Shown here: in pieces, positions 1,543 through 43,593 of the stretch | Position numbering within the stretch: the stretch's first letter is position 1 | Layout of the letters: each line of letters begins with the position of its first letter | Source: a virus | Taxonomy: Duplodnaviria > Caudoviricetes | Virus record (IMG/VR): IMGVR_UViG_3300034168_001612 | Span: 1 to 62,904 of that record | Strand: one strand, 5' to 3' | DNA length: 62,904 nucleotides | Notes under the pieces: model-generated | The model's input: only the letters and a program-made list of their open reading frames with translations | Told to the model about the DNA's origin: nothing | Databases searched by the model: none | Program-made: the position numbers and the translations under genes

Positions 1543-2937
1543 TTAAGAAAGTTGACCAGTAATATTATCCACAAGAACGTTCTTACGAGGCTGGTATCCA
1601 GCAAGACATAAGAAACGGAAATGGGCTTCTGGTAAGCTAAGATCGTTGATCGCCATTTTCAAACGAGAATATGGAGACAACTGGTGAATTCCCCAAGTAT
1701 TGGCCTGGATCAAGAACCCAGTTACTGCACCTGGACTACGATGACCAAGATCAGTAAATACTGTAGAAGCACCACCGGCAGATTTTACACGACCGATAAA
1801 TTTAGCAGAAGAAGCAGATCCACCAGCTTCAGAACGGTAAACGTTAAAATACTTAGAACCATTATTAGTAATAGTTACAGTAATTTTGTCACCAGCAGCT
1901 GCAGAAGTTGAAGCAGAAGCTGAAGAAAGTGATTCACCTCTTTCGTTTACACCAGTTACGAAATAAACGTAAGCTCCAGCAGGAAGAACTGAGTTAGCAT
2001 CAGCTGGAGAAGCAAGAACTGGAACAGCAGGAGCTGCCGGAGAACCAGAACGAGCACGAGCAGGTTTAGTTTTACCAGAAAGGAATCTAGAAGCTTCTAG
2101 AGAAACTAGAGCTGAAGAAGTCCATTGTTGTCTTAATTCAGCACCAGTCTTAGACGTAGCACTTCCACTAAGAACAATTCTTTCTTTTGCGTGAGCAATT
2201 TTATTATATTGAGCAAGAGAAATAGGATCAAGACAAAGTTTGTCAGCAGAACCGTGGTTCATAGCAGAACGAACAGCAGCATCTTCGATGATAGACTGAG
2301 TAAGAGTACCATCAGCAGAGAGAACTACAGTTTGATCTGAACCATATTCAGCAAACATAAGATCTTGAGTATTTGCCATTGCATCACTCATACGGATTTG
2401 TGCGTCAACACCAACCATATTCGGGATATCAGCGATTGAAGAAGGATCTCCAGTGAAGAAACCGTCAGAAGAGAATCCAGATTGACCTTGGAAAAGATCG
2501 AATTCAACGTCACCAGAAAGTTTCATAGCAGCATCAGAAGCAGCACGATCTTCAGCTTTAACGCCGTCAAAAGCACCAATCATGTTAGAAGCTACTGAAA
2601 CACGACGAGTTGTCGAGTAGTAAGCCATTGGAACTACAGCACGTACGTAGTTTGAAGTATCTTCTTCTCCGATACCACCTTCATACTGAGCTGAACCACC
2701 AAAAATACCGTAATCAAGTTGACGGTTAAATTGGATGAGTTGAGACTTGGCATCTTTGCTTTCAACCATTTTTTGAAGCTTGATGTGAGAATCATCCCAA
2801 GTAACGTTTTGCATAACAGGAGAAAGATCTTCTACCTGAAGTGCTGAACCTTGAGTAAGACTGTCTGGGGTTGCGTTGTAACTACCAACTTCTAGTGCCT
2901 TTACTAGCTGTTGCAGTTGTTCAATAGTGTTCGACAT
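1543..2937 (-). CDS. Major capsid protein (Herelleviridae-like, with an Ig/FN3-like insertion)
   Basis: KALEVGSYNATPDSLTQGSALQVEDLSPVMQNVTW resembles the Twort/SPO1-like MCP N-terminus; 464 aa; follows the scaffold; GGAGG RBS. Confidence 0.85.
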   Translation of the reverse strand: MSNTIEQLQQLVKALEVGSYNATPDSLTQGSALQVEDLSPVMQNVTWDDSHIKLQKMVESKDAKSQLIQFNRQLDYGIFGGSAQYEGGIGEEDTSNYVRAVVPMAYYSTTRRVSVASNMIGAFDGVKAEDRAASDAAMKLSGDVEFDLFQGQSGFSSDGFFTGDPSSIADIPNMVGVDAQIRMSDAMANTQDLMFAEYGSDQTVVLSADGTLTQSIIEDAAVRSAMNHGSADKLCLDPISLAQYNKIAHAKERIVLSGSATSKTGAELRQQWTSSALVSLEASRFLSGKTKPARARSGSPAAPAVPVLASPADANSVLPAGAYVYFVTGVNERGESLSSASASTSAAAGDKITVTITNNGSKYFNVYRSEAGGSASSAKFIGRVKSAGGASTVFTDLGHRSPGAVTGFLIQANTWGIHQLSPYSRLKMAINDLSLPEAHFRFLCLAGYQPRKNVLVDNITGQLS

Positions 2938-9766: not shown

Positions 9767-11203
9767 ATGTATAAACAAATTATACAAGAGATTAAAAAAA
9801 ACGAAAACCAACCGATTCAATCGGTACAGTCTGATGTTGTCAAAATTAATCCCGAAGATGGCAAAAAGGTAGCTCAAGCCTACCATAACATGGAACATAA
9901 TCCAGATCATCCCGAAGTAAAGCAAGCTTACGGTGCCTTGATTGATGAAACTAAACAGCAATTCAATGACTTAGTAGGTAAAGGATTGAAAATCTCCAGA
10001 ATTGAGTCTGGAATGGAAAATCCTTATAAAAATTCTAAAGAATTACATGCCGATGTTAAAAACAATGGCCACCTCTGGTATTTTCCTACAGAATCTGGTT
10101 TTGGGGGAGAGGAAAAAACTACGAATCACCCCATGTTACAGCCTGCCGGAATAACTCACGAAAATAAAGAACTTTTAGCTAACGATATATTCAGAATTGT
10201 TCATGATATAAACGGACACCATACGGGAGGTGAGTCAGGATTTGGCCCTACAGGGGAGCACAAGGCTTATTTAACTCACAAGCAAATGTATTCGCCACTT
10301 GCGGGGAAAGCATTAGCCTCGGAAACCTTAGGACAAAATTCATGGGTAAATTTCGGACCTCATGGAGATCATAATAAAAAAAACCCTTCTCAAACTATTT
10401 ATGCCGAACAAAAAGCAGGATTATTACCTGATGAAATAATCAATGGGAATTGGCATATATCAAAAAATATTGAAAAATCTGAAAAATCTTATTCTGAAGA
10501 AGAATTACTTCATTTTTTTAAGGAATACACCATGAAAAAATCTCTCGAATATACAGAAAAATATCCAGAAATACCCGAAAAAGAATTATATAAAAATTTT
10601 AATAAACTCCTGAGAAACGGCATAGCACTGATAGGTCTTGCACATGCCCACAGATATATGGACACCCCTCCGGAACAAATAAAGAATAAACTAATACCAG
10701 AAACGAGCATTTCTCAAGAAGCGGGGACTGGTAAGCAAAAAAAGATAAATAGTTTTTTAAAAACGACCTCTATGATAGAAAGCTCGGGCGGGAAAAATTT
10801 AGACCACCCTAAAGTTGCCCATGGACTACATGCAGGAGACAGAGCTGTTGGACAATGGGCACTAATGCCTAAGACAGTCAAGGAAATAGCAGGAAGGATG
10901 GCTGATGATTCTGAGATAGCTCCTTATGCTCAAATGAACAGTAAAAAAATATCACAAAAATTATCACAAAATCCTCATCATGAAAAACAGATGGCATCAT
11001 TTCTAGCCAATAAGCTTTACGATAAATTTGGAGGAGATGAAAATAAGATGGCATATGCTTGGAATCAAGGGCACAATATAGAGCCTAAGTCTTTTGATAG
11101 TGACCGAAAGGATTATTTAAATCACGATTATGTAAAAAAATATAATAAATATAAAAATCAAGATTCCTCATCCAGATCTATTGCTGGCTCTCAGAATGAG
11201 TGA
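9767..11203 (+). CDS. Two-domain protein: HDxxGH domain plus lysozyme-like transglycosylase
   Basis: NDIFRIVHDINGH..GFGPTGE..ETLGQNSW; then IESSGG..AVGQWALMP..AYAWNQG..YVKK. Confidence 0.7.
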   Translation: MYKQIIQEIKKNENQPIQSVQSDVVKINPEDGKKVAQAYHNMEHNPDHPEVKQAYGALIDETKQQFNDLVGKGLKISRIESGMENPYKNSKELHADVKNNGHLWYFPTESGFGGEEKTTNHPMLQPAGITHENKELLANDIFRIVHDINGHHTGGESGFGPTGEHKAYLTHKQMYSPLAGKALASETLGQNSWVNFGPHGDHNKKNPSQTIYAEQKAGLLPDEIINGNWHISKNIEKSEKSYSEEELLHFFKEYTMKKSLEYTEKYPEIPEKELYKNFNKLLRNGIALIGLAHAHRYMDTPPEQIKNKLIPETSISQEAGTGKQKKINSFLKTTSMIESSGGKNLDHPKVAHGLHAGDRAVGQWALMPKTVKEIAGRMADDSEIAPYAQMNSKKISQKLSQNPHHEKQMASFLANKLYDKFGGDENKMAYAWNQGHNIEPKSFDSDRKDYLNHDYVKKYNKYKNQDSSSRSIAGSQNE

Positions 11204-11478
11204 TATGTTGTATGAATATGAAAAAAACTACAAATGAAAAACTTGTTGGTAAAGTAAAAAAAAGAAGCTGGGACGATCTGGCGGGTGATATAATTTCATT
11301 AGAAAATTGCATCAGAAAGGAAAAAAATTCTAAATCATTGATTTTACTCAAAAATAAGTTAAAAATATGGGAAAAGGAGAAATCTGATCGTATTTTTAAC
11401 ACTTTTGATATGAAAACTTTTTTAAACAAAAATAATGAAGAATTTGAAATAGAATATTCTACAAAAACAACCACTTAA
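11200..11478 (+). CDS. Hypothetical protein
   Basis: ORF overlapping the upstream stop. Confidence 0.4.
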   Translation: MICCMNMKKTTNEKLVGKVKKRSWDDLAGDIISLENCIRKEKNSKSLILLKNKLKIWEKEKSDRIFNTFDMKTFLNKNNEEFEIEYSTKTTT

Positions 11479-12075: not shown

Positions 12076-12948
12076 ATGGATAAACTTAAGATCCCATCTC
12101 CTCCAAACCCTGATATTGGAATCAATCTAGATTCTCAGGATGAGTTTATCAAAAATAGAGGAGTGAATCTTGAGCATTACGCTGCCCTCCCCTCTCCGAT
12201 TGGATTAAAAGATAGAGGGGATTATAGAAGAACCGATCAATACGATTCTGTTACTTCAAACGGAATGCTTTATAAAAAAGTCGGATGTTTTACAGGGGTT
12301 ATTGTTTCAAATTCCAAAAGAAAAACCCCGGGTGAGGGTGGGATAATAGATCACTCTACTGCAAGACTTTTATTGCCTCGATTTTACAATGATAACAAAG
12401 AAATACACTTAGCCCCAGGTGACAGGGTTTTTATTAAAGATGTAGATGTTCTTGTATCAAATTATCAAAGAATGCAGTATGATCCGGGAAATTTTGATAG
12501 AGCGCAATTCCCTATTAAGTGTGTTGAATATTTAATAGATAGCAGAGGAATAGAATACAAAGAAGGGGTCCAGTTTAAAATCCAGGACGGGTATATCGAA
12601 TGGATTGATGGTAAGGATAATCCCGGAATAGACCAAGATACCGGCAAAGGAAGAGTCTATTCAGTAAGGTATAAATACAACGCCCATTGGTACATAACAG
12701 AAATACCAAATGAAGTAAGAGTGGCTCAGACATTCGGTCCAGATGGAGAAAGAGTTGCGGAAAGAATGCAATATTCGGCCATCATTCAAAGAGAATATGT
12801 TTACTATAATCAAAATAATGATATTAATAAGGACCATGGAAAAGAAAAATTGGTTAGAAATATAGAAGAGCCAAAAGACCTAATTGATACCATTTACGAA
12901 TATGAAATAAAAGTCGATATGAATGATATAGGAGAACAAGATGAGTAA
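12076..12948 (+). CDS. Head-closure/neck protein (probable)
   Basis: Beta-rich; YSVRYKY..WYI..IPNEVR; position in the neck cluster. Confidence 0.55.
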   Translation: MDKLKIPSPPNPDIGINLDSQDEFIKNRGVNLEHYAALPSPIGLKDRGDYRRTDQYDSVTSNGMLYKKVGCFTGVIVSNSKRKTPGEGGIIDHSTARLLLPRFYNDNKEIHLAPGDRVFIKDVDVLVSNYQRMQYDPGNFDRAQFPIKCVEYLIDSRGIEYKEGVQFKIQDGYIEWIDGKDNPGIDQDTGKGRVYSVRYKYNAHWYITEIPNEVRVAQTFGPDGERVAERMQYSAIIQREYVYYNQNNDINKDHGKEKLVRNIEEPKDLIDTIYEYEIKVDMNDIGEQDE

Positions 12949-13333
12949 GTTTTTTAGAAGAAAAATAGACGGAAGATATGCGGAAGATTCTCAAACTATT
13001 GATAATATTGAACACAATAGCGAAGCTGGTGCTCAAAAAAACATGGAAGTAGGTCCTGGATTAAAATTCATTGGAGATGCAACTTCCGAATTAAGAATAG
13101 CCCCGGGCGATCAGCTTTTTTTCTTTAAGACCACTAGCGGTCTTGGATGGGTTGAAATGTCGGAAAGTGGTAGTATAGGAGTTGTGGGATCTGCTCCAGC
13201 TGATAATACTTTCCCAATTGAAGGTCAAGTTTTCACTAGGTACTCGGCGGCAAATTATAAATATGTCAAAGCAAGTGCTGGTGTTTATCTCTATATTTTG
13301 AGGGATGACAATCAGCTAAGAATTAACCCTTAA
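12941..13333 (+). CDS. Hypothetical structural protein
   Basis: AGGAG RBS; coupled to the upstream gene. Confidence 0.6.
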   Translation: MSKFFRRKIDGRYAEDSQTIDNIEHNSEAGAQKNMEVGPGLKFIGDATSELRIAPGDQLFFFKTTSGLGWVEMSESGSIGVVGSAPADNTFPIEGQVFTRYSAANYKYVKASAGVYLYILRDDNQLRINP

Positions 13334-13346
13334 AAGGCAGTAATTA

Positions 13347-13634
13347 ATGAGTTCTTCTAAAAAATTAGAGAATTTTTTAAAAAAATCCCAAGGCGACCAG
13401 AGACAAGAGGCTGAGATAAAAAAAGCCGAGCTGATTAGTTGCCCAGACTGCGGTTTTAGTTTATATGAAGGTGGAAAAAGTTTGACGCTATGTATTTGTT
13501 ATGGAGAAGATTGGGATAAGAATATTAAAATTCAAAAGTCCGAAAAGGCCATAAAAATGCAGTTTCCTAAGAATATAGATCCAGAAAATATTGAAATGTT
13601 ATTGAATACATTAAAAAATTTGAATAAGGAATAG
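13347..13634 (+). CDS. Small zinc-ribbon protein
   Basis: CPDC..CIC; LKKSQ, IKKAE and IQKSE motifs. Confidence 0.6.
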   Translation: MSSSKKLENFLKKSQGDQRQEAEIKKAELISCPDCGFSLYEGGKSLTLCICYGEDWDKNIKIQKSEKAIKMQFPKNIDPENIEMLLNTLKNLNKE

Positions 13635-13636
13635 AT

Positions 13637-15520
13637 ATGAAAGAGCAAATGACCTACGTAGCAATCGATGCTGATGATGTAGGAGAAAGCATTGGAGGAG
13701 CTGTAATATCCGACGATGCAGATAAGCTATCATCAATTTCCGGCAAGATAAACGCTGGAGTACAAATTTTTTCAAAATGGGCTGAATATAACGGTGGATC
13801 TGTAATTAGTAGCGGAAGTGATGAGGCTATTTTTCAGGTTCCTTCAACCAGTATTAAAGAACTAGAAGATTTGAAAAACAAATACCAGAAGCATACAGGA
13901 TTTTCCGTATCAATTGGGATTGGTGAAAAAATATCTGATGCAGCTAAAGCTTTAATCTACGCCAAGGTGAACGGTAAAAATCAAATTGTTGATTATTCGC
14001 CTGAAATAGAAGAAGTGATGAAACAATCCATCACAGGAAACTTAGACAGAGAGCAATCTGATCAAAAATTAGAAGGCGGAGTAGGTGATGAGACTGAATC
14101 ATCAGAAGTTAAATCTGACCAGCTCAAGCAAGGTCGCACAGTAGAAAAAGAACACACCGACGATGAAGCGGAGGCTGAAGAGATCGCTTTAGATCATCTC
14201 ACAGAAGATCCTGAATACTATTCAAAACTTCAGGAAATGGAAAGTAGTAAGCCTAAAACCAGAAGGCCGAAATTTGAGGAAAAAGATGAAAGTGAAGATG
14301 AAAGTGAAGATGAAAGTGAAGAGGAAGATGAAGAGGAAGATGAAGATGAAGATACCGAAGATTTAGATCTTATACAAGATCAGGATTCGGAAGAAGAGAG
14401 TGAAAATTCATTTTTAAATCAAGAAGACTTAGATCTCGATGGCCGTCCTGACAAACAAGAAGAGCACGGGGAAATAAATCCTGAAGAAGACGATATAGAT
14501 AAAGATGGAGATACAGAGCACGAAGAGGCGATGGCTTCGGAGGCTGGTGAAAAAGATAAATATAGCGATGAAGGTGATTTTTCAGATGAATATCTGGATG
14601 AAGAAGCTGAACAAGATAAGACTGAACCAGAAGGCGAAGAAGAAATACCAGAAGGCGAAGAAGAAATGCCAGAAGGCGAAGAATTAGAAGAAGATGCGGA
14701 ATCCGAGGATGAGGGCGGTCTAACTGATTCTATAGCTTCGGAAATGTCTGACGAAGATATGTCTGAAGAAGAAATACCTGACGAAGAAATGTCTGACGAA
14801 GATATGGCGGATGAAGGGGATATGACTGATGAAGATTTAAAACAAGCCATTTTTGATAGCTTGCAAATATTCAAAGAAAATAAGGATATTCTATCCTCTC
14901 TTGCCTCTCAGAGTCCTGATCTATACAATGCTCTTGTTGTTTCTTTGCAATCTATGATAGAAATGGCAAAAGAGCTTGGATACGGAGGATACGGAGATAG
15001 CTCAAAGCAAGAGACTGATCCTAAAAAAATGAAAACCGAAGATGAAGAATCAAGCGATCAGGATGAAGACATGAATCCTGAAGACTATGAAGTCTCGGAC
15101 GATGAAGGAGATATCGAAAAAAGTGAGAATTTTCATAATTTAATAAACAAAATTAATAATACAAAAAATCTTCTAGAAATGAAAAAGAAAGAAGATAAAA
15201 AACAAATGTTTTTAAGGCTTAGAGAGAAGTTAAAGAAGATAAAAAACAAAGCCCCCGATTCTGGCAAAAAACCGTTCGAGGATAAAAAAAAGAAGCCACC
15301 AAAACCTAAGAAAGTTGAGGCAGCGTCATTTTGCTCGTCTTCTAATCAAAAAATGAAAACAGCAGGTCATGATTGTCGAGCTAATGAAGACAAAGACTCT
15401 CCCATGTGTGCTGCAAGAAAAAAAATGAATTGCAGAGGAAAAAATGCCGAAAAGGGTGCTGTTGTTCAGAAATCTGAAAAATTAAAAAACTTTCTGGAAA
15501 ATAAAAGAAAAAAGAATTAG
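13637..15520 (+). CDS. Modular acidic protein: N-terminal mCpol/GGDEF-like palm domain, DUF5661-like motif, acidic tract, Cys-containing basic tail
   Basis: YVAIDADDVG..NGGSVISSGSDE..SVSIGIG..AAKALIYAKVNGKNQI; QGRTVEKEHTDD..IALDHLTEDPEYYSKL. Confidence 0.75.
   Translation: MKEQMTYVAIDADDVGESIGGAVISDDADKLSSISGKINAGVQIFSKWAEYNGGSVISSGSDEAIFQVPSTSIKELEDLKNKYQKHTGFSVSIGIGEKISDAAKALIYAKVNGKNQIVDYSPEIEEVMKQSITGNLDREQSDQKLEGGVGDETESSEVKSDQLKQGRTVEKEHTDDEAEAEEIALDHLTEDPEYYSKLQEMESSKPKTRRPKFEEKDESEDESEDESEEEDEEEDEDEDTEDLDLIQDQDSEEESENSFLNQEDLDLDGRPDKQEEHGEINPEEDDIDKDGDTEHEEAMASEAGEKDKYSDEGDFSDEYLDEEAEQDKTEPEGEEEIPEGEEEMPEGEELEEDAESEDEGGLTDSIASEMSDEDMSEEEIPDEEMSDEDMADEGDMTDEDLKQAIFDSLQIFKENKDILSSLASQSPDLYNALVVSLQSMIEMAKELGYGGYGDSSKQETDPKKMKTEDEESSDQDEDMNPEDYEVSDDEGDIEKSENFHNLINKINNTKNLLEMKKKEDKKQMFLRLREKLKKIKNKAPDSGKKPFEDKKKKPPKPKKVEAASFCSSSNQKMKTAGHDCRANEDKDSPMCAARKKMNCRGKNAEKGAVVQKSEKLKNFLENKRKKN
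14284..14350 (+). repeat. Coding tandem repeat GATGAAAGTGAA x3 plus GAR/GAY runs
   Basis: Read directly; encodes a DESE acidic tract. Confidence 0.8.
14627..14682 (+). repeat. 21-bp coding repeat (PEGEEE[I/M]), about 3 copies
   Basis: CCAGAAGGCGAAGAAGAAATR units. Confidence 0.8.
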
Positions 15521-15771
15521 GGTCGCTAGATAAGACGAGTGGTGGACTACCGACCAAACAGACCACAAAGCATATTCCTAAACCCCATCACGAAGAAGGG
15601 ACTGTTAAGGGGTATAAGATAAAAGATACCGATCCGGCCACGGGCAAGGCTAAATGGATCGACGCATCCAGAGGACTAGCCTTGGATGACAATGGTGATC
15701 CCGTGTCTCCTCCTGGTCGCAGTCCTGTTAGAGGTACTAAAAATAAGCTTCCTCCTCCAGGACTTGTATGA
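15508..15771 (+). other. Putative programmed -1 frameshift site and 86-codon extension of the 13637 gene
   Basis: A_AAA_AAG at 15508-15514 in the correct frame; -1 frame open 15505-15771 with no ATG; its TGA overlaps the next ATG. Confidence 0.65.
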
Positions 15772-16532
15772 TTTTGGTGGATGTACAAATAGAAGGGAAT
15801 TTAGAACAAGATGGCAATAGAATAAAAAATAATATTCGAGAAGATCTTCATCTTGCCGTTAAAGCTATGGGTTCTAGTACTTTAAAAAAAGCAGAAGAAC
15901 TTGCTCAACAGCATCTTTCTCCAAAACTTGCCAGTATGTACAGAACCGCATTAAAGATAGAACAGCTATCAGAAGATGTAGTGATAATAGAATTGGATCA
16001 AAAAGCACTCTGGATAGAAAAAGGCCGCAAAGCAGGCTTTATGGAAGATCTCCTCAAATCTGGCACAAAAAAAGCAAAAGATGGGTCTAAATATAGGGTG
16101 ATACCTATTGGAGAATCAAAAACATCGCCTCAATCTCCTTCTGTAGGTGAAAATCTTGTGCCTGAGATAAAATCTTTTTTACAAAAAAAAGGTATCAGAA
16201 CAGGTGCGGGTGATTTAGAATTAGACAGCAGAGGAAGTCCCCGGCTTGGTAAAATAAATACTTTTAATATCAAAGATTTGAAAGATAAAAAACAAATTTC
16301 TGATAATATATCTAGAATAAGTGTTTTTCAGAATAAAAACCCTAAAACTGGAAAAGTAGAAAAAAGCATAACAGCGTTCAGGGTTATATCAGAAAAGCAT
16401 AAAGGAACGGGCAAATGGGTTCACCCAGGCACTCCTCCTGCAGAAATACTGGAAAAAGCTTTTAAATGGTCAGAACAACTATGGCAAACAGAGTTGTTTT
16501 TGGCGATTAAAGCAAAGTACGAAGGTAAATAA
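15768..16532 (+). CDS. Tail completion/neck protein (probable)
   Basis: WIEKG..KDGSKYRVIPI..FRVISEK..WVHPG motif seen in myovirus neck-region proteins. Confidence 0.6.
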   Translation: MILVDVQIEGNLEQDGNRIKNNIREDLHLAVKAMGSSTLKKAEELAQQHLSPKLASMYRTALKIEQLSEDVVIIELDQKALWIEKGRKAGFMEDLLKSGTKKAKDGSKYRVIPIGESKTSPQSPSVGENLVPEIKSFLQKKGIRTGAGDLELDSRGSPRLGKINTFNIKDLKDKKQISDNISRISVFQNKNPKTGKVEKSITAFRVISEKHKGTGKWVHPGTPPAEILEKAFKWSEQLWQTELFLAIKAKYEGK

Positions 16533-17515
16533 TGTCAATATGGCAAGGCGATGTCTTTTTTAGACGAATTATAGAATTGATCCTAAGAGATGTCAGACAA
16601 AATCCGTGGCTGATTGATGATATTCTTTCGGATTTTATCACAGATCCCATGCTTTCTGGCATATACGGTCAAAAAGAGATAGAAAACGCAAAAAAATGGA
16701 TCACTGATAACGAGATATCCGTATTTCTTCCTCATAGAATGGACTTGGAAAAAATGCCTTGTATTACCATCGCTATAGGAACCAACATGGAAGATAGGAG
16801 TCTGGCCAGAATGGCTGATATGACTCATATTGTTGAAACCTTAAACCCGACTCAAGTAGGTAAGGTAGTCCCTTATATTATCTCTCCTTTTAATTACATA
16901 TCTTACAACCAAGCAACAGGTTTTTTTGAAGTTCCAGATAGTATTAACTTACTAATAATACAACCAGGAATGGCGGTGATAAACCCCCAAACAGGCGCAG
17001 GATTTATTATTGTAAGCAAAAGCAACAATGGTTTTTCTATTGCGGCAGGAACCACTATAACCTTCCCTTCAATTGGCATAATCCCAGAGTATAGGATATA
17101 TAAAGCCAGAAGAGAAATTGCAACTTTCCAAGAAAACATCTCCATAGGATGTCATGTCCACGGTGATCCAAACGCCCTTCTGTGGCTTTATTCCATAATG
17201 ATGTATGGATTGTTAAGATATCGAGAAGGATTGATAGAATCTAGAAATTTCCAAATATCCAGCTTACAGACAACCGATATGATCAGGAATGATGCGTTTC
17301 AGAGCTTCGGAGAAAATGTCTATAGTCGATTCATAACTATAACCGGTCAGGTAGAGAATACTTGGATCAAGGCTCCTAAACGTGTAATAGAGGCTATCAA
17401 TATTGTTGAAGGAATCGATGCTGGACTGGTAATAATAAACAAAGACAATGGCGAAGTACCTGGAATTATTGATCGAGAACAGGATTCTTGGGTAGCTAAA
17501 ACTGATCCGGAATAA
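16532..17515 (+). CDS. Tail terminator/completion protein (probable)
   Basis: MPCITI motif; size and position upstream of the sheath. Confidence 0.55.
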   Translation: MSIWQGDVFFRRIIELILRDVRQNPWLIDDILSDFITDPMLSGIYGQKEIENAKKWITDNEISVFLPHRMDLEKMPCITIAIGTNMEDRSLARMADMTHIVETLNPTQVGKVVPYIISPFNYISYNQATGFFEVPDSINLLIIQPGMAVINPQTGAGFIIVSKSNNGFSIAAGTTITFPSIGIIPEYRIYKARREIATFQENISIGCHVHGDPNALLWLYSIMMYGLLRYREGLIESRNFQISSLQTTDMIRNDAFQSFGENVYSRFITITGQVENTWIKAPKRVIEAINIVEGIDAGLVIINKDNGEVPGIIDREQDSWVAKTDPE

Positions 17516-17522
17516 ATCTTTA
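17514..17522 (+). promoter_or_regulatory. Putative late promoter AAATCTTTA
   Basis: Recurrent motif. Confidence 0.45.
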
Positions 17523-17535
17523 TCTAGAGGTAAGT

Positions 17536-18168
17536 ATGGATAATTATTTAAAAGAAAAAAGCGATTTATTGTTAAAGTCACTTTATAAAAAAATGAAGAA
17601 ACTTGAACATAAAAAAAATGCCATTGAGGATGTTCTTGATTCAAATGCAACTGCTGAAATGAATCCTGACGACATCCCTACGTCCAGCTCTGGCACTTTA
17701 AATAAAGCCAAAATGCAGAAAAAACAAAAAGTGTCTGAGGATGTTAAAAAAAACGAAGAAATAATTGATAAACTTTTAAAAAATTTAGATGTGATTTCAA
17801 AAGCTTGCAAGTCAAAAATGGAAAAAAGATGCTGGGAAGGGTACGAAGCCACTCCTGGAAAAAAAGCTTATTCAGAAGGTTCTTGTCAATCTATAAAGAA
17901 AGAAGAAAAAGAAAAACCGTTCGTAGGGTATAATAAAGAAAAGCACTCCAAAGAGGGTGGTTTAAACGAAAAAGCTAGAGAAGAATACAATAGAGAGCAT
18001 GGATCGAATCTACAAGCTCCAGTTTCTTCAAAAGAAGCCAAAAAATCGCCCAAGAAAGCAGCTAGAAGAGAATCTTTTTGTGCTAGAATGTCGGGCGTAA
18101 AAGGTCCTACTAGTAAAGAAGGCAAAAAGACACCAAAAGGTGCCGCTCTTAAGAGATGGGATTGTTAA
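17536..18168 (+). CDS. Basic modular protein (CWxGY motif plus DUF6321-like C-terminus)
   Basis: RCWEGYEATPGKKAYSEGSC; GGLNEKAR..RRESFCARMSG..ALKRWDC. Confidence 0.7.
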   Translation: MDNYLKEKSDLLLKSLYKKMKKLEHKKNAIEDVLDSNATAEMNPDDIPTSSSGTLNKAKMQKKQKVSEDVKKNEEIIDKLLKNLDVISKACKSKMEKRCWEGYEATPGKKAYSEGSCQSIKKEEKEKPFVGYNKEKHSKEGGLNEKAREEYNREHGSNLQAPVSSKEAKKSPKKAARRESFCARMSGVKGPTSKEGKKTPKGAALKRWDC

Positions 18169-18991: not shown

Positions 18992-20488
18992 ATGGAAAAA
19001 GACAATAAAATTCAATACAAAATTCTTAAATCTGAAGCTTGCGGTCATACTATCGAGTATAAGATGGTAAAGAAAGAACATGAGCTTGAAAAAGCTCGTA
19101 TTGATGAGGGATTGTCTTCTAGAGAAAAAATGAAAGCTCGTGAGGCAAGATCTTCTAAAGAAAGAGAACCGAGAGAATTAAGCCCTGAACAGTATGAGAC
19201 TGGTAAAAAAATAGCCCGGACTAAGGCTGTCACTGCTACAGGCGAAAAACAAAGAAAAGAAACTCTTAAAGATGTTCTTCATACACATAAGCAAAATGCT
19301 CCTAAATCTCCTTCCAAGGAAGATCTAGAATACCCTATGGCTGCTAGTGAAAAAGAATGTTTGTGCAAAGATTGTGATTGTGATAAAAAAGAAATGAATA
19401 AAAGAGAAAAATTCTATATTCAAAAGATTCAGGAATTGAGGAAATTTGGTTTTGATCAAAAAGAATTTGAAACAGGCTTAAGACAAAAAGTTGCTGCTAC
19501 GGCTGATCAACAACGGCAGCAAAAAGATACAAGTTTAGAAAATACTGGAATTGTTAATCGAAATCGAGCCGCCTTTGGTCAGCCCATGGCTACGCAAGGA
19601 ACTCAAAGCAGTATGGGCGATTATGTTTTAAAAGACGCTCCTCAAAGAGGGGAAAGAGCCGGAACAGCTTCTGTTAATCAAATGACAGGAATGAATAGAA
19701 TGTTACCTGCTTCTGCCTCTTCAGCACAAGGTCCGTCAGCACAAGCTCCTGCTCCTGCTGCTGGACAAGCTCCTGCTCCTGCTGCTGGACAAGCTCCTGC
19801 TCCTGCTGCTGGACAAGCTCCTGCTCCTGCTGGTGCTGCTGCACCGCAAAGGATGCAATTTGGGAAAGATAGCGGCGTGAATTTTAAAGATGCTTTCGCA
19901 CAAGCTAGGAAATCAGGTAATCAAGAATTTGACTGGTATAATCCTAAAACAGGTAAAACGCAGCCATATCATACCCATTCAAAAGAAGAATTTCAACAAG
20001 GTAAAACTCTTGCTGCTGGAAGAAATCCTGAAGGATTTCAATCACAGACTATAGGCGCTGATAATAAGTATTTCAAAGGTTATCAAGCTCAACAAAAAGC
20101 TGCTCCTACAGCACAAGGTCCTGTCGCTGCTCCTACAGCACAAGGTCCTGCCGCTGCTCCCGCAGCAAAAGCGCCAAATCCAAATGCGAACATAACGGGT
20201 GTAAATACAAATGGTTCTATTTCTTCAACAGAATCTGATGGAAGAAAAACATTAACCATGCCTCAAAATTCTATATCAATGGCTCGTCCTGATCAAATGG
20301 GAATGGCACCAGCTCTAAACGAGCCAGGTAAAGTAGGAATGAAAATTCCTGGTGCCTCTGTTAAATATCCAGAAGCCGAAGGTTTTAAATCTGGAGATAC
20401 GGCCACAACCCAAGCTCCTACGAGTGAGCAGGCTGAAGGAAATATAAAATATAATAAAAATAATAAATTAAATGCGAATATGGGATAA
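18992..20488 (+). CDS. Low-complexity putative internal/ejection protein
   Basis: ILKSE and LEKAR motifs; FKDAFAQARKSG..FDW..YHT module; Ala/Pro repeats. Confidence 0.6.
   Translation: MEKDNKIQYKILKSEACGHTIEYKMVKKEHELEKARIDEGLSSREKMKAREARSSKEREPRELSPEQYETGKKIARTKAVTATGEKQRKETLKDVLHTHKQNAPKSPSKEDLEYPMAASEKECLCKDCDCDKKEMNKREKFYIQKIQELRKFGFDQKEFETGLRQKVAATADQQRQQKDTSLENTGIVNRNRAAFGQPMATQGTQSSMGDYVLKDAPQRGERAGTASVNQMTGMNRMLPASASSAQGPSAQAPAPAAGQAPAPAAGQAPAPAAGQAPAPAGAAAPQRMQFGKDSGVNFKDAFAQARKSGNQEFDWYNPKTGKTQPYHTHSKEEFQQGKTLAAGRNPEGFQSQTIGADNKYFKGYQAQQKAAPTAQGPVAAPTAQGPAAAPAAKAPNPNANITGVNTNGSISSTESDGRKTLTMPQNSISMARPDQMGMAPALNEPGKVGMKIPGASVKYPEAEGFKSGDTATTQAPTSEQAEGNIKYNKNNKLNANMG
19741..19831 (+). 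repeat. 24-bp tandem repeat, about 3.8 copies (QAPAPAAG)
   Basis: ACAAGCTCCTGCTCCTGCTGCTGG units. Confidence 0.9.
20099..20160 (+). repeat. 27-bp tandem repeat, about 2.3 copies (AAPTAQGP[V/A])
   Basis: GCTGCTCCTACAGCACAAGGTCCTG units. Confidence 0.85.
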
Positions 20489-20490
20489 AT

Positions 20491-20682
20491 ATGATAACAA
20501 ATAAGAAAAAAGACAAAAACAACAACAGAGAAGAATTTAGAAAATACTTCTTGAAATTAAACAAAAAACTTAATCTGAATAAATCTTTAGAGGAAGTAAT
20601 TTGGATACACCTTAAAACAATTGATCATGATAAGAAAGAATTGTTTGATAAGGGAGTAGAACATTTTGGATATAAATTATAA
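20491..20682 (+). CDS. Small hypothetical protein upstream of the sheath
   Basis: 63 aa; contains AAATCTTTA at 20581-20589, a candidate sheath promoter. Confidence 0.55.
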   Translation: MITNKKKDKNNNREEFRKYFLKLNKKLNLNKSLEEVIWIHLKTIDHDKKELFDKGVEHFGYKL

Positions 20683-20710: not shown

Positions 20711-22867
20711 ATGGCACAACGATTAACTACTAGCTTTGTAAACACCAACATCCCCGGTGCTTACCCAAGCGTAACAGTAAAGTCAACCCCGGTAGGCATT
20801 TCTAGTACTGGAGATATTGTTATTATCGGAGAAGCCGAAGGCGGCGCTGATTTTACACAAGACGCACTTAAAGATAACTTTTTTACTGCCACTCAATTAA
20901 CAAGAGTGAAAGCAAAATATCTGAGAGGACCAATAGTTGACGCTATGGCGGCGCTTATTTCTCCAAGCAATGACACCAATATCCAAGGATCGATTGGTAA
21001 AGTCTACATTATTAAAACTAATGGTGGATCAAAAGCATTGGCAAGTATGGGTGCTTCTCCATCGGGTGTTTACGGCTCTCTTTCTGATAAGAATTTTGGT
21101 GCAGATGGAAATAAATATTTTTTCAAGATAAGTCAAGTAGAATCTGAAGTTGCTCCTTCTATCACAGGAAATAGCTTAGCTCCATTTACTGCCACAGACT
21201 TTGACGCTCTTTCTTTTTCTGTAAGATTGAATGGTGGAGCGGAAGTAGCAATTACCTTAGGTACTGGTACTCATGCTTCTCTTGCTGCTCTTGCTTCTGA
21301 AATTGATGCCCTTTTGCCAGCTGGAATGAGCTGTGCAGCAGTTCCTGCCAGTAATTCGATTGCTATCTCTGTTGACGCAGATGCAGCCGCTAATGGAAAA
21401 GGATCTGGTAAATCATTTGAATTGATTGACTCTACCCCGGGTGATTTGGCAGTTTTGGGTCATGATGAAGATCTTATCGTTTCCTCTCAAGAGCCAGAAG
21501 TTCAAATAGCTATCAATAGACAAGATACGAACACTAACGAATCTTTCATGGCAGAGGCTCAAATAGCTATATCTGTAGGATATGATGGTACTAGTGCTAT
21601 TCTTTCAATTTCATCAGGAAGCCTTACAACTACTGTAGTTGGCGGATCTGGCTCTAGTCTAAGTATCGCTCTTAGCGAATTTACAACTATGTCCGACCTT
21701 GCTGCTTTCATTAATTCTCAAGCAGGATATTCTGCTTCTTCAGTTTCTTCTTCTAATAATCTAAGCCCGCTTAAATTGGATGAAGTAGCTGCTATCGGAA
21801 TTGCTACATCTGGCGGATTTGAAGCTGGAAGAATTAAAAGAGCACTTTATAACTTTCAAAATAAAATTGCATCAAGTTCTGTTCTTGATTTTGAAGCATC
21901 TGCTGCTGCAGGATTGCCGGCTGAAATGGCTGCTTCTCAATTCTTAGCAGGAGGAGCAAAAGGTTCTACAACTGCTGCTGATATTGCAAATTCTATCCCT
22001 TCTTTAGAGGGTGTTAAAGTTAATTTTGTTATTCCTCTGTTCTCTAGAGATGCCTCTGAAGATATCGCAGATGGTTTGACTGAATCTACTTCTACTTATA
22101 CAATTGACGCTATTAACGCTCTTGTTAAGTCTCACGTTCTTGCTATGTCAACTCCAAAAATGAAGAGGAACAGAGTAGCTATGCTCAGTAAACAAGCAAG
22201 CTATGCAGCTACAAAAGAAGCGGCGGCTTCTTTGTCTAATTACAGAGCTAACATGTTTTTCCAAAGATCAAGCCAAGTTAATTCTCTTGGTAATGTTACA
22301 GAGTACCAACCATGGCATGCGGCCTGTATTGCAGCTGGTATGCAAGCTGCAGGATTTAACAAGTCTCTGACTAATAAATTCGCCAATGTTATCAGTTTTA
22401 AAGATCCTGCTGGATTTGATTCTGGTAATCCGGGTGATGTTGAAGATGCAATTGATGCAGGATTATTTTTCATGCAACAAGAAACAGCTGGGAACAAGTG
22501 GGTGGTTGATCAAACTACTTACGGTTTTGACACAAATTTTGTGTACAACTCACTACAAGCCGTATATATGGCCGATGTTCTTGCGATTCAATTGTCTGAA
22601 TCTCTTGAAAAATTTGCAGTAGGACAATCTCTTGCTGATATTACTTCTGCAGGAATTGTTGCCTTCATTTCTAAAAAAATGGAAGAATATAGAAAGCTTA
22701 AAATCATTGGGGCTTCTGATGACGCTCCTTTGGGATATAAAAATGTTAGCGTTTCTATCAATGGCCCTATTGCAGAAGTTAAACTTGAAGCTAAACTTGC
22801 TACGGCAATCTTGTTCATACCAATTGAATTAGAATTGAGCCAAATCCAGTCTAGCGCATCAGCATAA
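20711..22867 (+). CDS. Contractile tail sheath protein
   Basis: PGAYPSV..IVIIGEAEGG N-terminus and sheath-like C-terminal domain; 718 aa. Confidence 0.9.
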   Translation: MAQRLTTSFVNTNIPGAYPSVTVKSTPVGISSTGDIVIIGEAEGGADFTQDALKDNFFTATQLTRVKAKYLRGPIVDAMAALISPSNDTNIQGSIGKVYIIKTNGGSKALASMGASPSGVYGSLSDKNFGADGNKYFFKISQVESEVAPSITGNSLAPFTATDFDALSFSVRLNGGAEVAITLGTGTHASLAALASEIDALLPAGMSCAAVPASNSIAISVDADAAANGKGSGKSFELIDSTPGDLAVLGHDEDLIVSSQEPEVQIAINRQDTNTNESFMAEAQIAISVGYDGTSAILSISSGSLTTTVVGGSGSSLSIALSEFTTMSDLAAFINSQAGYSASSVSSSNNLSPLKLDEVAAIGIATSGGFEAGRIKRALYNFQNKIASSSVLDFEASAAAGLPAEMAASQFLAGGAKGSTTAADIANSIPSLEGVKVNFVIPLFSRDASEDIADGLTESTSTYTIDAINALVKSHVLAMSTPKMKRNRVAMLSKQASYAATKEAAASLSNYRANMFFQRSSQVNSLGNVTEYQPWHAACIAAGMQAAGFNKSLTNKFANVISFKDPAGFDSGNPGDVEDAIDAGLFFMQQETAGNKWVVDQTTYGFDTNFVYNSLQAVYMADVLAIQLSESLEKFAVGQSLADITSAGIVAFISKKMEEYRKLKIIGASDDAPLGYKNVSVSINGPIAEVKLEAKLATAILFIPIELELSQIQSSASA

Positions 22868-24342: not shown

Positions 24343-25338
24343 ATGGAAGATAATTCGGGTAGATTTAAAATTATCAAAGCGACCTCATTGGAAGATATTA
24401 ACGATGGTACAATCAAAGAATTGCCAGAATCCGACTTATGCATCCAAACCAGCTCTCATATTGTTCAATATAAGTATGTAGACGAAGAAGATGAAAACAA
24501 AGGTAAGGTTACAATCAAACCAGGTATCTGGACTATTGTAAATATGGGCGGATCTTTACGTCTTAAAAAACTAGAGCTTAAAATTCATAACTTATTAGAA
24601 ACAGCAACCAACAGTGCTCTTATCCAAAAAGAGGCTCAAATTTTCTTCAGTAAGTTGGATGTTTATAAGAAATTCAAGAAAGAGCCTAAAAGATCTATTT
24701 TGCTTTATTCTCAGCCCGGAATGGGAAAAAGCTCGACAATTGCCAAGATTAGTCAGGATTTTTTACAAGAAGACGAAGGAACAGTGGCCATATTTTGGGA
24801 TACTTCTGATATTGGCTCTGGTGCTGTTAGTAAATTTTTATCTACAGGAAGTAAATTCTCTAGCAAATGTACTCGAATGTTTTTCATCATGGAGGATATT
24901 GGAGGAGGAAATGCAGAGGATTATCACGGTCCTAAAACTGCGGATTCAAGTCTACTTGAGCTTTTAGATGGGGCTTCTGTAAATTTCAGACTTCCTACGT
25001 TTATTATTGCTACTACCAATACTCCTGAAAACCTATTAAAATCTCTAGCGGATAGACCGGGTAGATTTGATCAAATGTTTGAGCTGGTAGGCCCAGATGC
25101 GGAAGAAAGAGTAAAATTAGCGGAACACATGTTCGGAAATAAATTAACGCCAACTCAACGTGAGGCTTTAATGAGTAAGGACGCAGATGGTCTTAGTATT
25201 GCTCATATTTCTGAAATAATTATCAGATCAGAACTTCATGACAAAACCTATCTAGAGGTTATAAAAGAAATGAAAGAACATAAGAAAAAAATAGAAGCGG
25301 CTTTCCAAAAAGCTAAAAGCAAGCTAGGGCTTGGGTAA
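24343..25338 (+). CDS. AAA+ ATPase
   Basis: LLYSQPGMGKS Walker A, FIMEDI Walker B, ATTN sensor 1, DRPGRFD Arg finger. Confidence 0.9.
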   Translation: MEDNSGRFKIIKATSLEDINDGTIKELPESDLCIQTSSHIVQYKYVDEEDENKGKVTIKPGIWTIVNMGGSLRLKKLELKIHNLLETATNSALIQKEAQIFFSKLDVYKKFKKEPKRSILLYSQPGMGKSSTIAKISQDFLQEDEGTVAIFWDTSDIGSGAVSKFLSTGSKFSSKCTRMFFIMEDIGGGNAEDYHGPKTADSSLLELLDGASVNFRLPTFIIATTNTPENLLKSLADRPGRFDQMFELVGPDAEERVKLAEHMFGNKLTPTQREALMSKDADGLSIAHISEIIIRSELHDKTYLEVIKEMKEHKKKIEAAFQKAKSKLGLG

Positions 25339-25355
25339 TAACAAAGGGAGAAAAA

Positions 25356-25559
25356 ATGAGTACAGAAGTAAAGAGATGGTCTACGGTTAATGGTAAATCG
25401 ACCAAAGCGGGCAAAAAGTTAACGAAAGGATCTGTTGATTTTATTGTTAAAAATGCGGGTAAAATGTCAGGCAGAAGTATTGCAAATATTTTGCATCGAC
25501 CGCTTAAGACAGTTCAGACAGTCGCAGCTCGTGCTGGTGTAAGTCTAAAAGTTAAGTAG
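25356..25559 (+). CDS. Small HTH DNA-binding protein
   Basis: MSGRSIANILHRPLKTVQTVAARAGVSL; GGGAG RBS. Confidence 0.7.
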   Translation: MSTEVKRWSTVNGKSTKAGKKLTKGSVDFIVKNAGKMSGRSIANILHRPLKTVQTVAARAGVSLKVK

Positions 25560-26411: not shown

Positions 26412-28196
26412 ATGACTGTAAAGAAGGTAAAAAGCCCCGCAAAGCTTTATTGTTCTAATCCTAGTATTTTGAGGAAAATCACCTCTCAAACTATGGATGA
26501 GATCTCAAGTATCGTAGGGTCTAGCTATGGTCCCGGTGGTAAGACCACTCTTATAGAGAGTGAGTATCCAGGAATTCCCAATAAGAATACCAAAGATGGG
26601 GTGACGATTTTTAAATCGCTAGGGTCACAAGATCCCTATAAACATTTGATTATCGAACAAACTAGGGATGCAGCCCAAAGAACGGCCAGTGAGGCTGGAG
26701 ATGGAACGACTGCAACCACTATTATCTCAGCTCATCTCGTTAAATCTTTGTTTAAATATTGTGAAGAAAATCCAAAAGAATCGCCTCAAAGGGCTACTCG
26801 GATTCTGGACAAAATAGTAAAAAAAGAACTTATTCCAACTGTCAGAAAAGCATCAATCCAAATCACTACAGAAAACCAACATCTTCTTGGGAAAGTGGCT
26901 AAAATCTCTGCGAATGGGGATGAGGAGATGGCGGAAGCAGTAATGCAAGCGTTTGATATGGTAGGTTTTGGCGAATCTTCTCACGTTACGATCCAGGAAC
27001 TTTCCGGACCGGGTGGGTACGAAGTAGAGCTTATTGAAGGATATCCGATTGCTATCGGTTTTGAAGAATCAATCGGTAAATTTCATACTGCATTCATAAA
27101 TGATAAAGCCAATCAAAGATGTAAGCTTGATAAGCCTTTGTTTCTTTTGTACGATGGTATAGTGAACGATTTAGTGGCATTTCTTCCTTTGATCGATTCT
27201 CTAGGCAAAAAATACGTACAAGAAGGCGATTCAGATTACTGTAACCTAGTACTAGTAGCCCATGGTTTTTCTGAAAACGTATTAACAACTCTTGCTTTTA
27301 ACTTTTCAAATCCTACAACTTTAAACGTTGTACCAATGGCAACTCCTATAACCAACCAAAAAAATTCCCGATTAGAGTTTCTTTACGATATAGCTGGCTT
27401 TACAGGAGCTAAGATTTTTGATATGAATAATCAGGTAGCGAAGGCTGGATTGCAGGATCTAGGAGCTGGTATGGAACTGTTTGAGTTCTATAGATTTAGA
27501 GGGACAGTTGTCGGTCAGCCTGACGAGATGGATATTTCAGATAGAGCTGACGAATTGGAACAACAACTCAAAAATGCAGCAAGTATTTCCGAAAAATTGG
27601 ATCTGGAAGAGAGGCTCGGTAAATTAACAAACGGTATTGCAAAACTTAAAATATATGGTGCATCTAATGGCGAACTTAAAGAAAGACACGACAGATGCGA
27701 AGATGCTGTTTGTGCTGTAAGAAGTGCGATTAAGCATGGAGCACTTCCCGGCGGATGTAGAGTACTGGTTAACTTAGCATTGAAATTAAATTCTGAATAT
27801 GAAGAAAGTCACAGGGACTACAACTTGGTTCAGACTGTTTTGATTGAAAGTCTTATGGAACCTCTACGCAAGCTTCTGGACAATGCGGGATATAATTCTG
27901 AAGAAATTCAAAAAATTATTACAGATTATTTTGTTGACACAAAAAAAGTCTACGATATAGAAAATATGGAATTCGGAGATCCAGAGGATCTTGGTATATT
28001 CGATGCCTCCCAAGCTATTATCCAGGCTCTAGAGAACAGTGTTTCAATCGCCAGTGTCATGGGTAATTTGGGTGGAATTGTTTGTTCTCCAAGGGATAAT
28101 CAATTAGAACTGAGTGCATGGAAAGAAGATCAAGATTTTAGAAGATCTGTAGACCATGCGGAAGAATTCACAAACGAAGCGAACGTAAGACCTTAA
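26412..28196 (+). CDS. groEL: Phage chaperonin GroEL (Cpn60)
   Basis: GPGG, TKDGVT, AGDGTTAT, ISANGD, EERLGKL, EDAVCA, PGG motifs. Confidence 0.92.
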   Translation: MTVKKVKSPAKLYCSNPSILRKITSQTMDEISSIVGSSYGPGGKTTLIESEYPGIPNKNTKDGVTIFKSLGSQDPYKHLIIEQTRDAAQRTASEAGDGTTATTIISAHLVKSLFKYCEENPKESPQRATRILDKIVKKELIPTVRKASIQITTENQHLLGKVAKISANGDEEMAEAVMQAFDMVGFGESSHVTIQELSGPGGYEVELIEGYPIAIGFEESIGKFHTAFINDKANQRCKLDKPLFLLYDGIVNDLVAFLPLIDSLGKKYVQEGDSDYCNLVLVAHGFSENVLTTLAFNFSNPTTLNVVPMATPITNQKNSRLEFLYDIAGFTGAKIFDMNNQVAKAGLQDLGAGMELFEFYRFRGTVVGQPDEMDISDRADELEQQLKNAASISEKLDLEERLGKLTNGIAKLKIYGASNGELKERHDRCEDAVCAVRSAIKHGALPGGCRVLVNLALKLNSEYEESHRDYNLVQTVLIESLMEPLRKLLDNAGYNSEEIQKIITDYFVDTKKVYDIENMEFGDPEDLGIFDASQAIIQALENSVSIASVMGNLGGIVCSPRDNQLELSAWKEDQDFRRSVDHAEEFTNEANVRP

Positions 28197-42783: not shown

Positions 42784-43354
42784 TAAAAAAGATGAATTAA
42801 AACCACCCACGCCTGATATCGTAAAAAAAAGGCTAATTAAGGGTGGTATTCGTCGTGTATTCAGGCAGTCAATAGAGATGAGAGTTGTTTTACAATCCTC
42901 TAGGGTAGAACTGTCTCCTAAGACACTCAAAGACGGCTCAATCGGTAAGAAGAATCAAATAAGATACAAGTGCGCAATATGCGGTGAGTTATTCTCTCAA
43001 CAAGATGTTGCAGTAGATCATATCGATCCTGTGATACCTTTGCATAGATCGGAAGAAGAGCTAACGATTGATGAAATGGCTTATAGAATATGGTGCGATA
43101 TAAGCAATTTGCAGGTTATTTGTAACACCACTCTAAAGAGAAGTCAAGGAGTTCCTAGCTGCCATAAGATAAAAACTGATGAAGAAAACTTTATCAGAAA
43201 AAAACTTAAGGAAGAAAAATGGGACGGCCAACTGTCTCGTATGCTTGAGCTAAAACAAGAATACAAACTATATTTAGAAGAAAAAGAAAAAGAAAGACTG
43301 GAAAAACAAAAACGAAAAGCTGAAAAAGAAGCGAAACGCAAGGTAAAAAAATGA
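42761..43354 (+). CDS. HNH endonuclease
   Basis: YKCAIC..VDHIDPV..NLQVIC..CHKIKT. Confidence 0.85.
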   Translation: MPRKSKSNKKDELKPPTPDIVKKRLIKGGIRRVFRQSIEMRVVLQSSRVELSPKTLKDGSIGKKNQIRYKCAICGELFSQQDVAVDHIDPVIPLHRSEEELTIDEMAYRIWCDISNLQVICNTTLKRSQGVPSCHKIKTDEENFIRKKLKEEKWDGQLSRMLELKQEYKLYLEEKEKERLEKQKRKAEKEAKRKVKK

Positions 43355-43593
43355 ACAATAAAACAATCACCCATGAGCAAGCTTCTAAAAGAATCAAAGA
43401 GCTAGAGGTCAAGCAAAGAGTTTTAAAAGCTTTTAGAAATCATTCTTTTAAATTTCAAAAAATTAGCGATGCCACCGATTATCAATTATACATATTCCAA
43501 AATAAAAAAGAAATAAATATGCTGCTAAGTATCATCTACTGGCATAAAAAAGCTAAAAAAATATTTGCTGATTTAAAGAAAATAAAACCATGA
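43351..43593 (+). CDS. Hypothetical protein
   Basis: Coupled ORF. Confidence 0.5.
   Translation: MNNKTITHEQASKRIKELEVKQRVLKAFRNHSFKFQKISDATDYQLYIFQNKKEINMLLSIIYWHKKAKKIFADLKKIKP

Follow-up and report, generated by a model that had tools for sequence, protein, structure and literature searches.

A probable programmed -1 ribosomal frameshift adds a conserved C-terminal domain to an mCpol-domain protein of tailed phages

What is encoded in the apparently empty 247 nucleotides (nt) between two late genes of a lake-water phage? The DNA analysed here (the window) is the whole 62,904-nt stretch of IMG/VR record IMGVR_UViG_3300034168_001612 (Duplodnaviria; Caudoviricetes), a 62.9-kb viral contig with a CheckV completeness of 39%. 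Within it, the gene at 13637-15520 encodes an mCpol-domain protein and is followed by a gap at 15521-15767. A first-pass annotation had proposed that a -1 ribosomal frameshift at the end of this gene extends the mCpol protein into the gap. We consider it highly probable that a programmed -1 ribosomal frameshift, at a heptamer of the dnaX/IS3 class, gives some copies of the mCpol protein an additional, conserved C-terminal domain. This proposal is supported by relatives in which the two parts are fused, by conservation of the heptamer and spacer, by purifying selection on the extension and by suppression of synonymous variation beside the heptamer.

Direct reading of the sequence confirmed the local features first described. 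The gene ends in the 0-frame codons AAT AAA AGA AAA AAG AAT TAG (TAG at 15518-15520), which contain the heptamer A_AAA_AAG at 15508-15514, and GGTCG (15521-15525), 6 nt after the heptamer, is complementary to CGACC (15551-15555). After TAA at 15502-15504, the -1 frame has 88 open codons without an ATG (15505-15768), up to a TGA at 15769-15771 that overlaps the ATG of the next gene at 15768 (ATGA), an overlap that is also kept in the related loci L002 and L003. Its first ATG, GTG or TTG is codon 60 of 88 (TTG 15682). The predicted trans-frame product, joined after Lys626 at ...ENKRKK/ELGSLDK... (the slash marks the junction), would be 711 amino acids (aa) long. An open frame of this kind is unusual, because only 15 of 5000 dinucleotide shuffles of 15505-15768 were free of in-frame stops and because, among the 21 of 56 plus-strand genes in the window whose -1 frame is open for at least 40 codons past the stop, 20 run into the next gene, with a start codon no more than 20 codons from the frame opening; the 13637-15520 gene is the sole exception. 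No promoter-like or terminator-like sites were found in 15300-15900. Read-through or recoding of the TAG was rejected since the 0 frame meets a second TAG two codons on and its continuation is unrelated to the domain encoded in the -1 frame. An antisense open reading frame (ORF) at 15588-15788 (66 aa), which shares third codon positions with the extension frame, was also rejected, with stops in its start region in L003 and L007.

The frame relation recurs in relatives. A search of viral contigs with the extension returned five loci (L002-L006) and a metagenome scan two more (L007 and L008, the latter identical to L005 over the stretch compared). Throughout L002-L008 the extension lies in the -1 frame of an upstream mCpol gene, with an in-phase heptamer and GGTCG...CGACC, and the spacer is exactly 6 nt in the window, L002, L003, L005, L006 and L007. 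The L006 extension is only 46% identical, and its heptamer is C_CCA_AAG rather than A_AAA_AAG. Profile A3, of more distant extensions, added 21 loci: 12 in the -1 layout with an in-phase heptamer, eight fused and one at +1. The non-redundant tally, which counts related sequences and not independent events, was 15 loci at -1, 11 fused and one at +1. Conservation of the heptamer in homologs had been suggested as a check, and an in-phase X_XXY_YYZ heptamer was present within the short frame overlap in all 15 non-redundant split loci. Four heptamers were used: A_AAA_AAG (window, L002, L003, L005, L007, L025), C_CCA_AAG (L006, L017, L027, L028, L030, L032), C_CCA_AAA (L024, L034) and, in L019, C_CCA_AAA overlapping A_AAA_AAA. 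At each gene's own rate, the chance of a heptamer in the overlap was 0-0.22 in 14 loci and 0.53 in L007. The 0-frame stop lies 0-24 nt past the heptamer across the split loci, conservation begins right at the heptamer, and a canonical start first occurs in the -1 frame at codon 31-99 in 14 loci and nowhere in L006. Searches of the INPHARED phages (blastn with 13000-17600, tblastn with the extension) gave no match.

The domain was also found as part of a single continuous gene. A query with the N-terminal domain recovered fused loci L012 and L013, and one with the Cys-rich C-terminus recovered L040-L043; in all, the domain is in frame in L012, L013, L015, L018, L020, L021/L022, L023, L029, L033, L040-L043 and protein WNM70340.1 of Myxococcus phage Mx1. 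The fused forms came from the N-terminal domain and profile searches; a word-index search aimed at longer relatives of the extension returned no fused protein. Mx1 (L036, OR576727.2:33963-35369) was the only cultured relative found and the only INPHARED match in a tblastn search with the fused protein P0014, at 26% identity over the mCpol domain. Its homolog, annotated as 'hypothetical protein', is fused, is followed four genes later by the tail sheath gene and lacks a slippery heptamer around the junction; a literature search found no genome paper on this phage. A profile search of 1.84 billion representative proteins gave 33 matches. Nine were proteins of 257-724 aa that end in the domain, and mCpol was also matched by seven of the eight scanned; 20 were free ORFs of 31-96 aa; two long matches were doubtful (many short stretches) and two (137 and 153 aa) were fragments of fused forms. 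Aligned with the fused proteins, the predicted trans-frame product is collinear and shows no difference in length, as seen by comparing the junction of split L030 (...DPK/ASGAIGQPIGKLP...) with the same region of fused L015 (...DPKNGSPVGQPIGKLP...).

The extension is under purifying selection. Over codons 3-86 of the -1 frame, the ratio of nonsynonymous to synonymous substitution rates (dN/dS) was 0.06-0.15 at dS of 0.7-1.3 in all six pairs among the window, L002, L003 and L007, and differences were concentrated at third codon positions (e.g. 7/8/35 by position); L005 was left out because a one-codon indel breaks the gap-free alignment. The product is a conserved small basic domain with the motif LPTKxTTKH...G..KG.K.D..TGK..WID, for which Pfam and PHROGs gave no match. 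An AlphaFold2 model (mean predicted local distance difference test, pLDDT, 75.3) contained only a beta hairpin at residues 38-53, Foldseek against the PDB returned 0 matches at E <= 0.001 (best 0.56) and a search of the ESM Atlas gave no usable match. By analogy with other systems, the added domain presumably serves in assembly or binding within a virion-module protein, the frameshift setting its dose. The G+C content of 15505-15768 is 0.48, compared with 0.36 window-wide.

A second signal in the same codons lies at the level of RNA. Among codons with conserved amino acids, synonymous variation was seen in 3 of 17 at codons 3-22 versus 33 of 42 at codons 23-86 (Fisher p=2.2e-5, in a small sample of four related sequences). 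The suppressed stretch is the 60 nt after the heptamer, and the positions that do vary there are the stem mismatch, the loop and the linker. Suppression so close to the heptamer points to an RNA element overlapping the coding sequence. Eight of the nine predicted stem pairs form in at least five of six aligned sequences, the mismatch being U.G in L005 and G-C in L006, and GUGGU/ACCAC, a possible second helix, pairs in five of six (not in L006); the stem and second helix are about 89-90% paired across the six sequences. Neither the stem arms nor the pseudoknot partners are present in fused L013, which still encodes L-A-T-K-Q-T-T. In programmed -1 frameshift cassettes, a stimulatory RNA structure is expected 5-9 nt downstream of the heptamer. 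The first pair lies 4-7 nt past the heptamer in 13 of the 15 split loci, and in the remaining two the main stem opens at 5-6 nt; at six loci (L005, L006, L017, L019, L027, L034) the fold is clearly better than that of shuffled sequence (z <= -2.7). A 9-bp hairpin shows a compensatory G-C to A-U change between L027 (GCCGAUAGG/CCUAUCGGC) and L017 (GCCAAUAGG/CCUAUUGGC). Upstream of the heptamer, a Shine-Dalgarno (SD)-like GGAG lies 8 nt before it in L002 and L003 and GAGGA likewise in L006; the window and L007 have only GGAA at this position and L005 has none, and the element also encodes a conserved Leu-Glu.

The hairpin arms of the distant group specify the peptide I-G-x-P-I-G, and AUAGG, the Ile codon AUA followed by GG, supplies the 0-frame TAG. 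About 10-35 nt past the heptamer in L017, L027, L030, L015 and others, the two arms repeat each other in inverted orientation and each specifies the same tripeptide (P/A-I/V-G ... P-I-G), so that RNA structure and the peptide motif IGxPIGKLP are entangled.

We propose that 13637-15520 and the 247 nt that follow form one recoded gene. Most ribosomes would read AGA AAA AAG AAT and end at TAG, releasing the 627-aa protein. A fraction would slip back by one base, with two tRNA-Lys on the AAA-AAG of A_AAA_AAG, and would then read GAA UUA GGG..., adding 85 residues; the resulting isoform would end one base inside the next gene. RNA structure 6 nt downstream may aid the slip, namely the stem at 15521-15555 and perhaps a pseudoknot with 15562-15566. 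The added domain would be the one that is the constitutive C-terminus of the same protein in sister phages. Slippage, its efficiency, the isoform ratio and the parts played by stem, pseudoknot and added domain are here predictions from sequence.

Several observations weigh against this interpretation. In a gene so rich in Lys (nine in-phase heptamers per 625 codons), an in-phase heptamer in the five available codon slots has a chance of P ~0.07 at the gene's own rate, and the window heptamer alone is therefore weak evidence. The window stem-loop (-9.6 kcal/mol) has a z-score of only -0.5 to -0.6, with 53 of 200 shuffles folding as well, and in eight of the 15 split loci, the window included, the fold is no better than that of shuffled sequence (z within about 1 of zero). 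Because every pair is invariant in the window clade, covariation is absent there, and values as large as those observed arose in 408-485 of 500 shuffled controls. Conservation of the stem arms and of the pseudoknot partner is partly a matter of protein sequence, since they also specify conserved residues (G-S, L-P-T, T-T). A permissive Rfam search of 15400-15700 returned no frameshift element, its two matches (E 7-8) being at chance level, and the sole matching metatranscriptome contig, X24, spans 15807-16013, outside the site. The loci in the tally share ancestry, as noted above. On a tree of the mCpol domain (25 rows, leaving out the duplicates L004, L008, L026 and L035, and also L007, L017, L031 (N-terminus off contig) and L040-L043), split and fused forms are interspersed: well-supported branches require at least five changes, and the labels cluster no more strongly than they do after shuffling (84/500); such scattered states could also be read as frequent indel damage. 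Finally, the L016 extension is in the +1 frame with no obvious signal. At L016:3381-3560 the domain is +1 to a 540-aa upstream mCpol ORF that ends ...GCC CCA CAG CGA TAA, and an X_XXY_YYZ site is lacking; possible explanations are a genuine mutation, a contig error or a -2 slip of tRNA-Pro on G_CCC_CA.

Four other explanations of the locus were weighed. The extension might be a separate small protein, made from a non-canonical start or by termination-reinitiation after the TAG. Public gene calls do list extensions as free ORFs of 31-96 aa, the length class of 20 of the 33 profile matches; several of these start M-I-G or M-G near the conserved IGxPIG, so that some lineages may have a usable start, and a 0-frame stop so close behind the heptamer could also permit reinitiation. 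However, the called starts vary among relatives (ORFs of 78 and 55 aa, for example), the 15 readable loci have no ATG, GTG or TTG before codon 31-99, if at all, and conservation runs from the heptamer on. In 11 fused relatives the domain forms the end of this protein, with which the trans-frame junction is collinear. A separate protein would not account for the in-phase heptamer or for a -1 relation in 15 of 16 split loci. We judge this explanation very unlikely.

Slippage of RNA polymerase on a run of A, yielding mRNAs with one A more or fewer that join the frames, would fit the A6 of the window, the A7 of L019, an A9 near the site in L007 and the T5A10 at the homologous place in fused L012, L013 and L040-L043. 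Polymerase slippage usually needs about eight or more A. Six split loci have C_CCA_AAG and two C_CCA_AAA, with only 3-4 A in a row, which is too short, and the conserved X_XXY_YYZ phase and the structure at 4-7 nt are features of ribosomal slippage. The polymerase explanation is thus highly improbable.

We place in the same highly improbable class a fixed frameshift mutation, through which the C-terminal domain was cut off, is no longer made and is decaying. Split and fused states do alternate on the tree, split and fused members of close pairs differ by a 1-nt spacer indel after the heptamer (for example L019/L023 and L030/L021), and L016 is shifted the opposite way. Yet the extension frame is open in all 15 split loci, the low dN/dS given above holds among the window's close relatives despite their high dS, the ATGA overlap is kept in the window, L002 and L003, and the split loci, with 15 at -1 and one at +1, are no random mix. 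An assembly or sequencing error in the homopolymer, the true gene being one continuous ORF, has a negligible probability, since although the A6 run lies in a metagenome-assembled contig and the comparison rests on contigs, the extra A that a homopolymer check was to look for is absent from contigs (not raw reads) of two independent metagenome runs from other studies, X4 record 7 (15276-15545) and X9 record 14 (15398-15602), both of which cross the site with 0 differences and 0 gaps, and six other window-clade and nine distant contigs share the -1 relation with differing local sequences.

Returning to the programmed frameshift, the fused genes raise the possibility that both layouts yield two isoforms. 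An in-phase heptamer is kept at the homologous site in eight of 11 fused relatives: C_CCA_AAR in L015, L020, L021 and L033, A_AAA_AAG in L023 and T5A10 in L012, L013 and L040. The -1 frame of these genes stops within 1-14 codons, and a hairpin follows the heptamer in L015, L020, L021 and L023. In L015, L020, L021 and L033, which have 4-6 Pro-Lys per gene, Pro-Lys is written NNC-CCA-AAR at the site in four of four cases versus 0 of 15 elsewhere. In the three fused lineages of the window clade (L012:7308-7325, L013:6957-6975, L040:1669-1690), F-L-K-K-K is written TTTTTAAAAAAAAAA (T5A10), a run that is slippery for ribosomes and RNA polymerase alike and whose alternative frames both stop within 12 codons. 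The retained heptamers and hairpins hint that long and short isoforms may arise from either layout. A possible but doubtful generalisation is that the cassette is frame-agnostic, the family always making both isoforms, with a 1-nt spacer indel swapping which of them needs the slip. In a split gene the 0 frame would give the short form and the slip the long one; in a fused gene the long form would come from the 0 frame, with slippage on the retained heptamer leading to an early stop, as in dnaX. If efficiency were near one half, frequent and tolerated switching of layout would be expected, and the minimum of five changes on the tree is in keeping with this generalisation.

The 0-frame product matches Pfam mCpol (PF18182) at residues 7-120 (E=1.2e-17, 64.8 bits, above the cut-off of 26.4) and DUF5661 (PF18905) at residues 158-203 (E=2.4e-12); no paper on DUF5661 was found in a literature search covering sources other than subscription journals and supplementary files. 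Beyond these, a long and very acidic middle leads through a conserved helical segment to a basic, Cys-rich end with four Cys. The mCpol cut-off is also passed by the relatives P0014, P0018, P0026, P0027, P0030 and P0038, and the Mx1 homolog (P0039) scores under it at 21.0 bits. The palm motifs look intact family-wide, with D-x-D near the N-terminus and GSDE in the window or GGDE in most relatives, so the protein is possibly an active nucleotide cyclase, phage-borne and within a structural gene cluster. The four-Cys motif, C-x12-C-x10-C-x7-C, is encoded at 15340-15470, directly before the frameshift site; distant relatives have repeated CPYC/CxxC motifs mid-protein in its place. Both could be zinc-binding modules.

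Coordinates of the features discussed are collected in Table 1. The window also encodes a terminase, a portal, a large DNA polymerase and, adjoining the terminase gene, a GroEL-like chaperonin at 26412-28196 (phrog_5725, E=1.1e-87). The placing of the putative recoded gene outside the tail-chaperone context held up: the 627-aa protein has no match to a tail assembly chaperone family in Pfam or PHROGs, and its gene lies upstream of the tail sheath gene, not between tail tube and tape-measure genes. Further long -1 extensions (20467-20682, 25317-25559, 43324-43593 and 11200-11478) were rejected as frameshift candidates, since each is a normal small gene that has an ATG or GTG of its own close to where the frame opens. 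Small ORFs at 20491-20682, 25356-25559 and 43351-43593 fill three other apparent plus-strand gaps, each with its own ATG and two with an SD-like sequence. An in-phase A7 occurs at 43345, yet an ATG follows at 43351, and this site is not a frameshift candidate.

Table 1. Features at the recoding site and in the surrounding gene block of the window
Feature	Position	Strand	Remarks
0-frame ORF, mCpol-domain protein (short isoform)	13637-15520	+	627 aa
Slippery heptamer A_AAA_AAG	15508-15514	+	X_XXY_YYZ phase with the 0 frame; direct sequence reading
-1 frame extension	15514-15771	+	85 codons, GAA 15514 to GTA 15768, plus TGA 15769-15771
Spacer AAUUAG, 6 nt	15515-15520	+	Includes the 0-frame stop TAG
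Predicted stem-loop	15521-15555	+	GGUCG-C-UAG (15521-15529) / CUA-C-CGACC (15547-15555), 9 pairs, one C.C mismatch
Possible pseudoknot stem 2	15539-15566	+	GUGGU (15539-15543) / ACCAC (15562-15566); inferred only
Next gene	15768-16532	+	254 aa, phrog_16819, function unknown; ATG overlaps the extension TGA (ATGA)
Major head protein	1543-2937	-	
Virion structural protein	12076-12948		Precedes the 13637-15520 gene in a long + strand late-gene block
Tail sheath	20711-22867		5 kb downstream of the 13637-15520 gene

PMC10885494 describes tail assembly chaperone -1 frameshifts in tailed phages and indicates that, among phage frameshifts, tail chaperones dominate, with some cases in capsid and other genes. 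The locus described here would be one of few phage recoding events known outside tail chaperones and capsids, a -1 frameshift that is well conserved across a whole family of structural-module proteins with a Cas10-like mCpol palm domain; this family is essentially unstudied and almost wholly uncultured. It also corrects the annotation: the 'empty' 247 nt are the 3' part of a probable recoded gene, and the free ORFs of up to 96 aa (20 of the 33 library representatives) may likewise be 3' parts of recoded genes. Split and fused alleles that share one cassette offer a natural series for following the co-evolution of frameshift efficiency and gene layout, and the junction provides a handle on the role of the C-terminal domain.

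Bacterial mCpol belongs to Panoptes defence systems, according to the available text of PMC12657230, in which phage structural mCpol proteins or frameshifting are not mentioned. The present protein resembles Panoptes mCpol in its N-terminal Pfam match above cut-off and its GGDE-like motif, and differs in being phage-borne, in lying in a structural gene cluster and in being fused to about 500 further residues. No paper linking mCpol proteins with frameshifting was found in the literature search described above.

Several known genes offer parallels for the recoding. The lambda G/GT and T7 10A/10B genes are precedents for a C-terminal extension dosed by frameshifting. As in G/GT, the gene belongs to the late or structural module, the putative slip near its 3' end would add a C-terminal domain, and the two ORFs are often annotated apart, with a single fused gene in some phages. 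The 627-aa mCpol protein, upstream of the sheath gene and with no chaperone family match, is unlike G/GT in kind. In the major head protein of Lactobacillus phage A2, a frameshift reportedly occurs at C_CCA_AAA with a stem-loop, the heptamer class of L024 and L034. T7 10A/10B and A2 share with the present locus a slip at the end of a structural gene that gives a minor, C-terminally extended isoform, as predicted here; in our case the protein is a different one, not the major head protein, and the extension is constitutive in sister phages. E. coli dnaX, which encodes tau and gamma, has a -1 frameshift at A_AAA_AAG with a stem-loop after it and an internal SD-like sequence about 10 nt before it, and its shifted product is the short isoform. 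The window matches dnaX in the heptamer, in the predicted stem-loop about 6 nt downstream and in two proposed isoforms that differ in their C-terminal part, and an SD-like sequence precedes the heptamer in L002, L003 and L006, where the window has only GGAA. It differs in belonging to an unrelated protein family, in matching no Rfam frameshift element and in that its shifted product would be the long form, whereas the heptamer-keeping fused relatives would mimic dnaX. The lake-water phage cassette is very probably a new example of a known recoding type.

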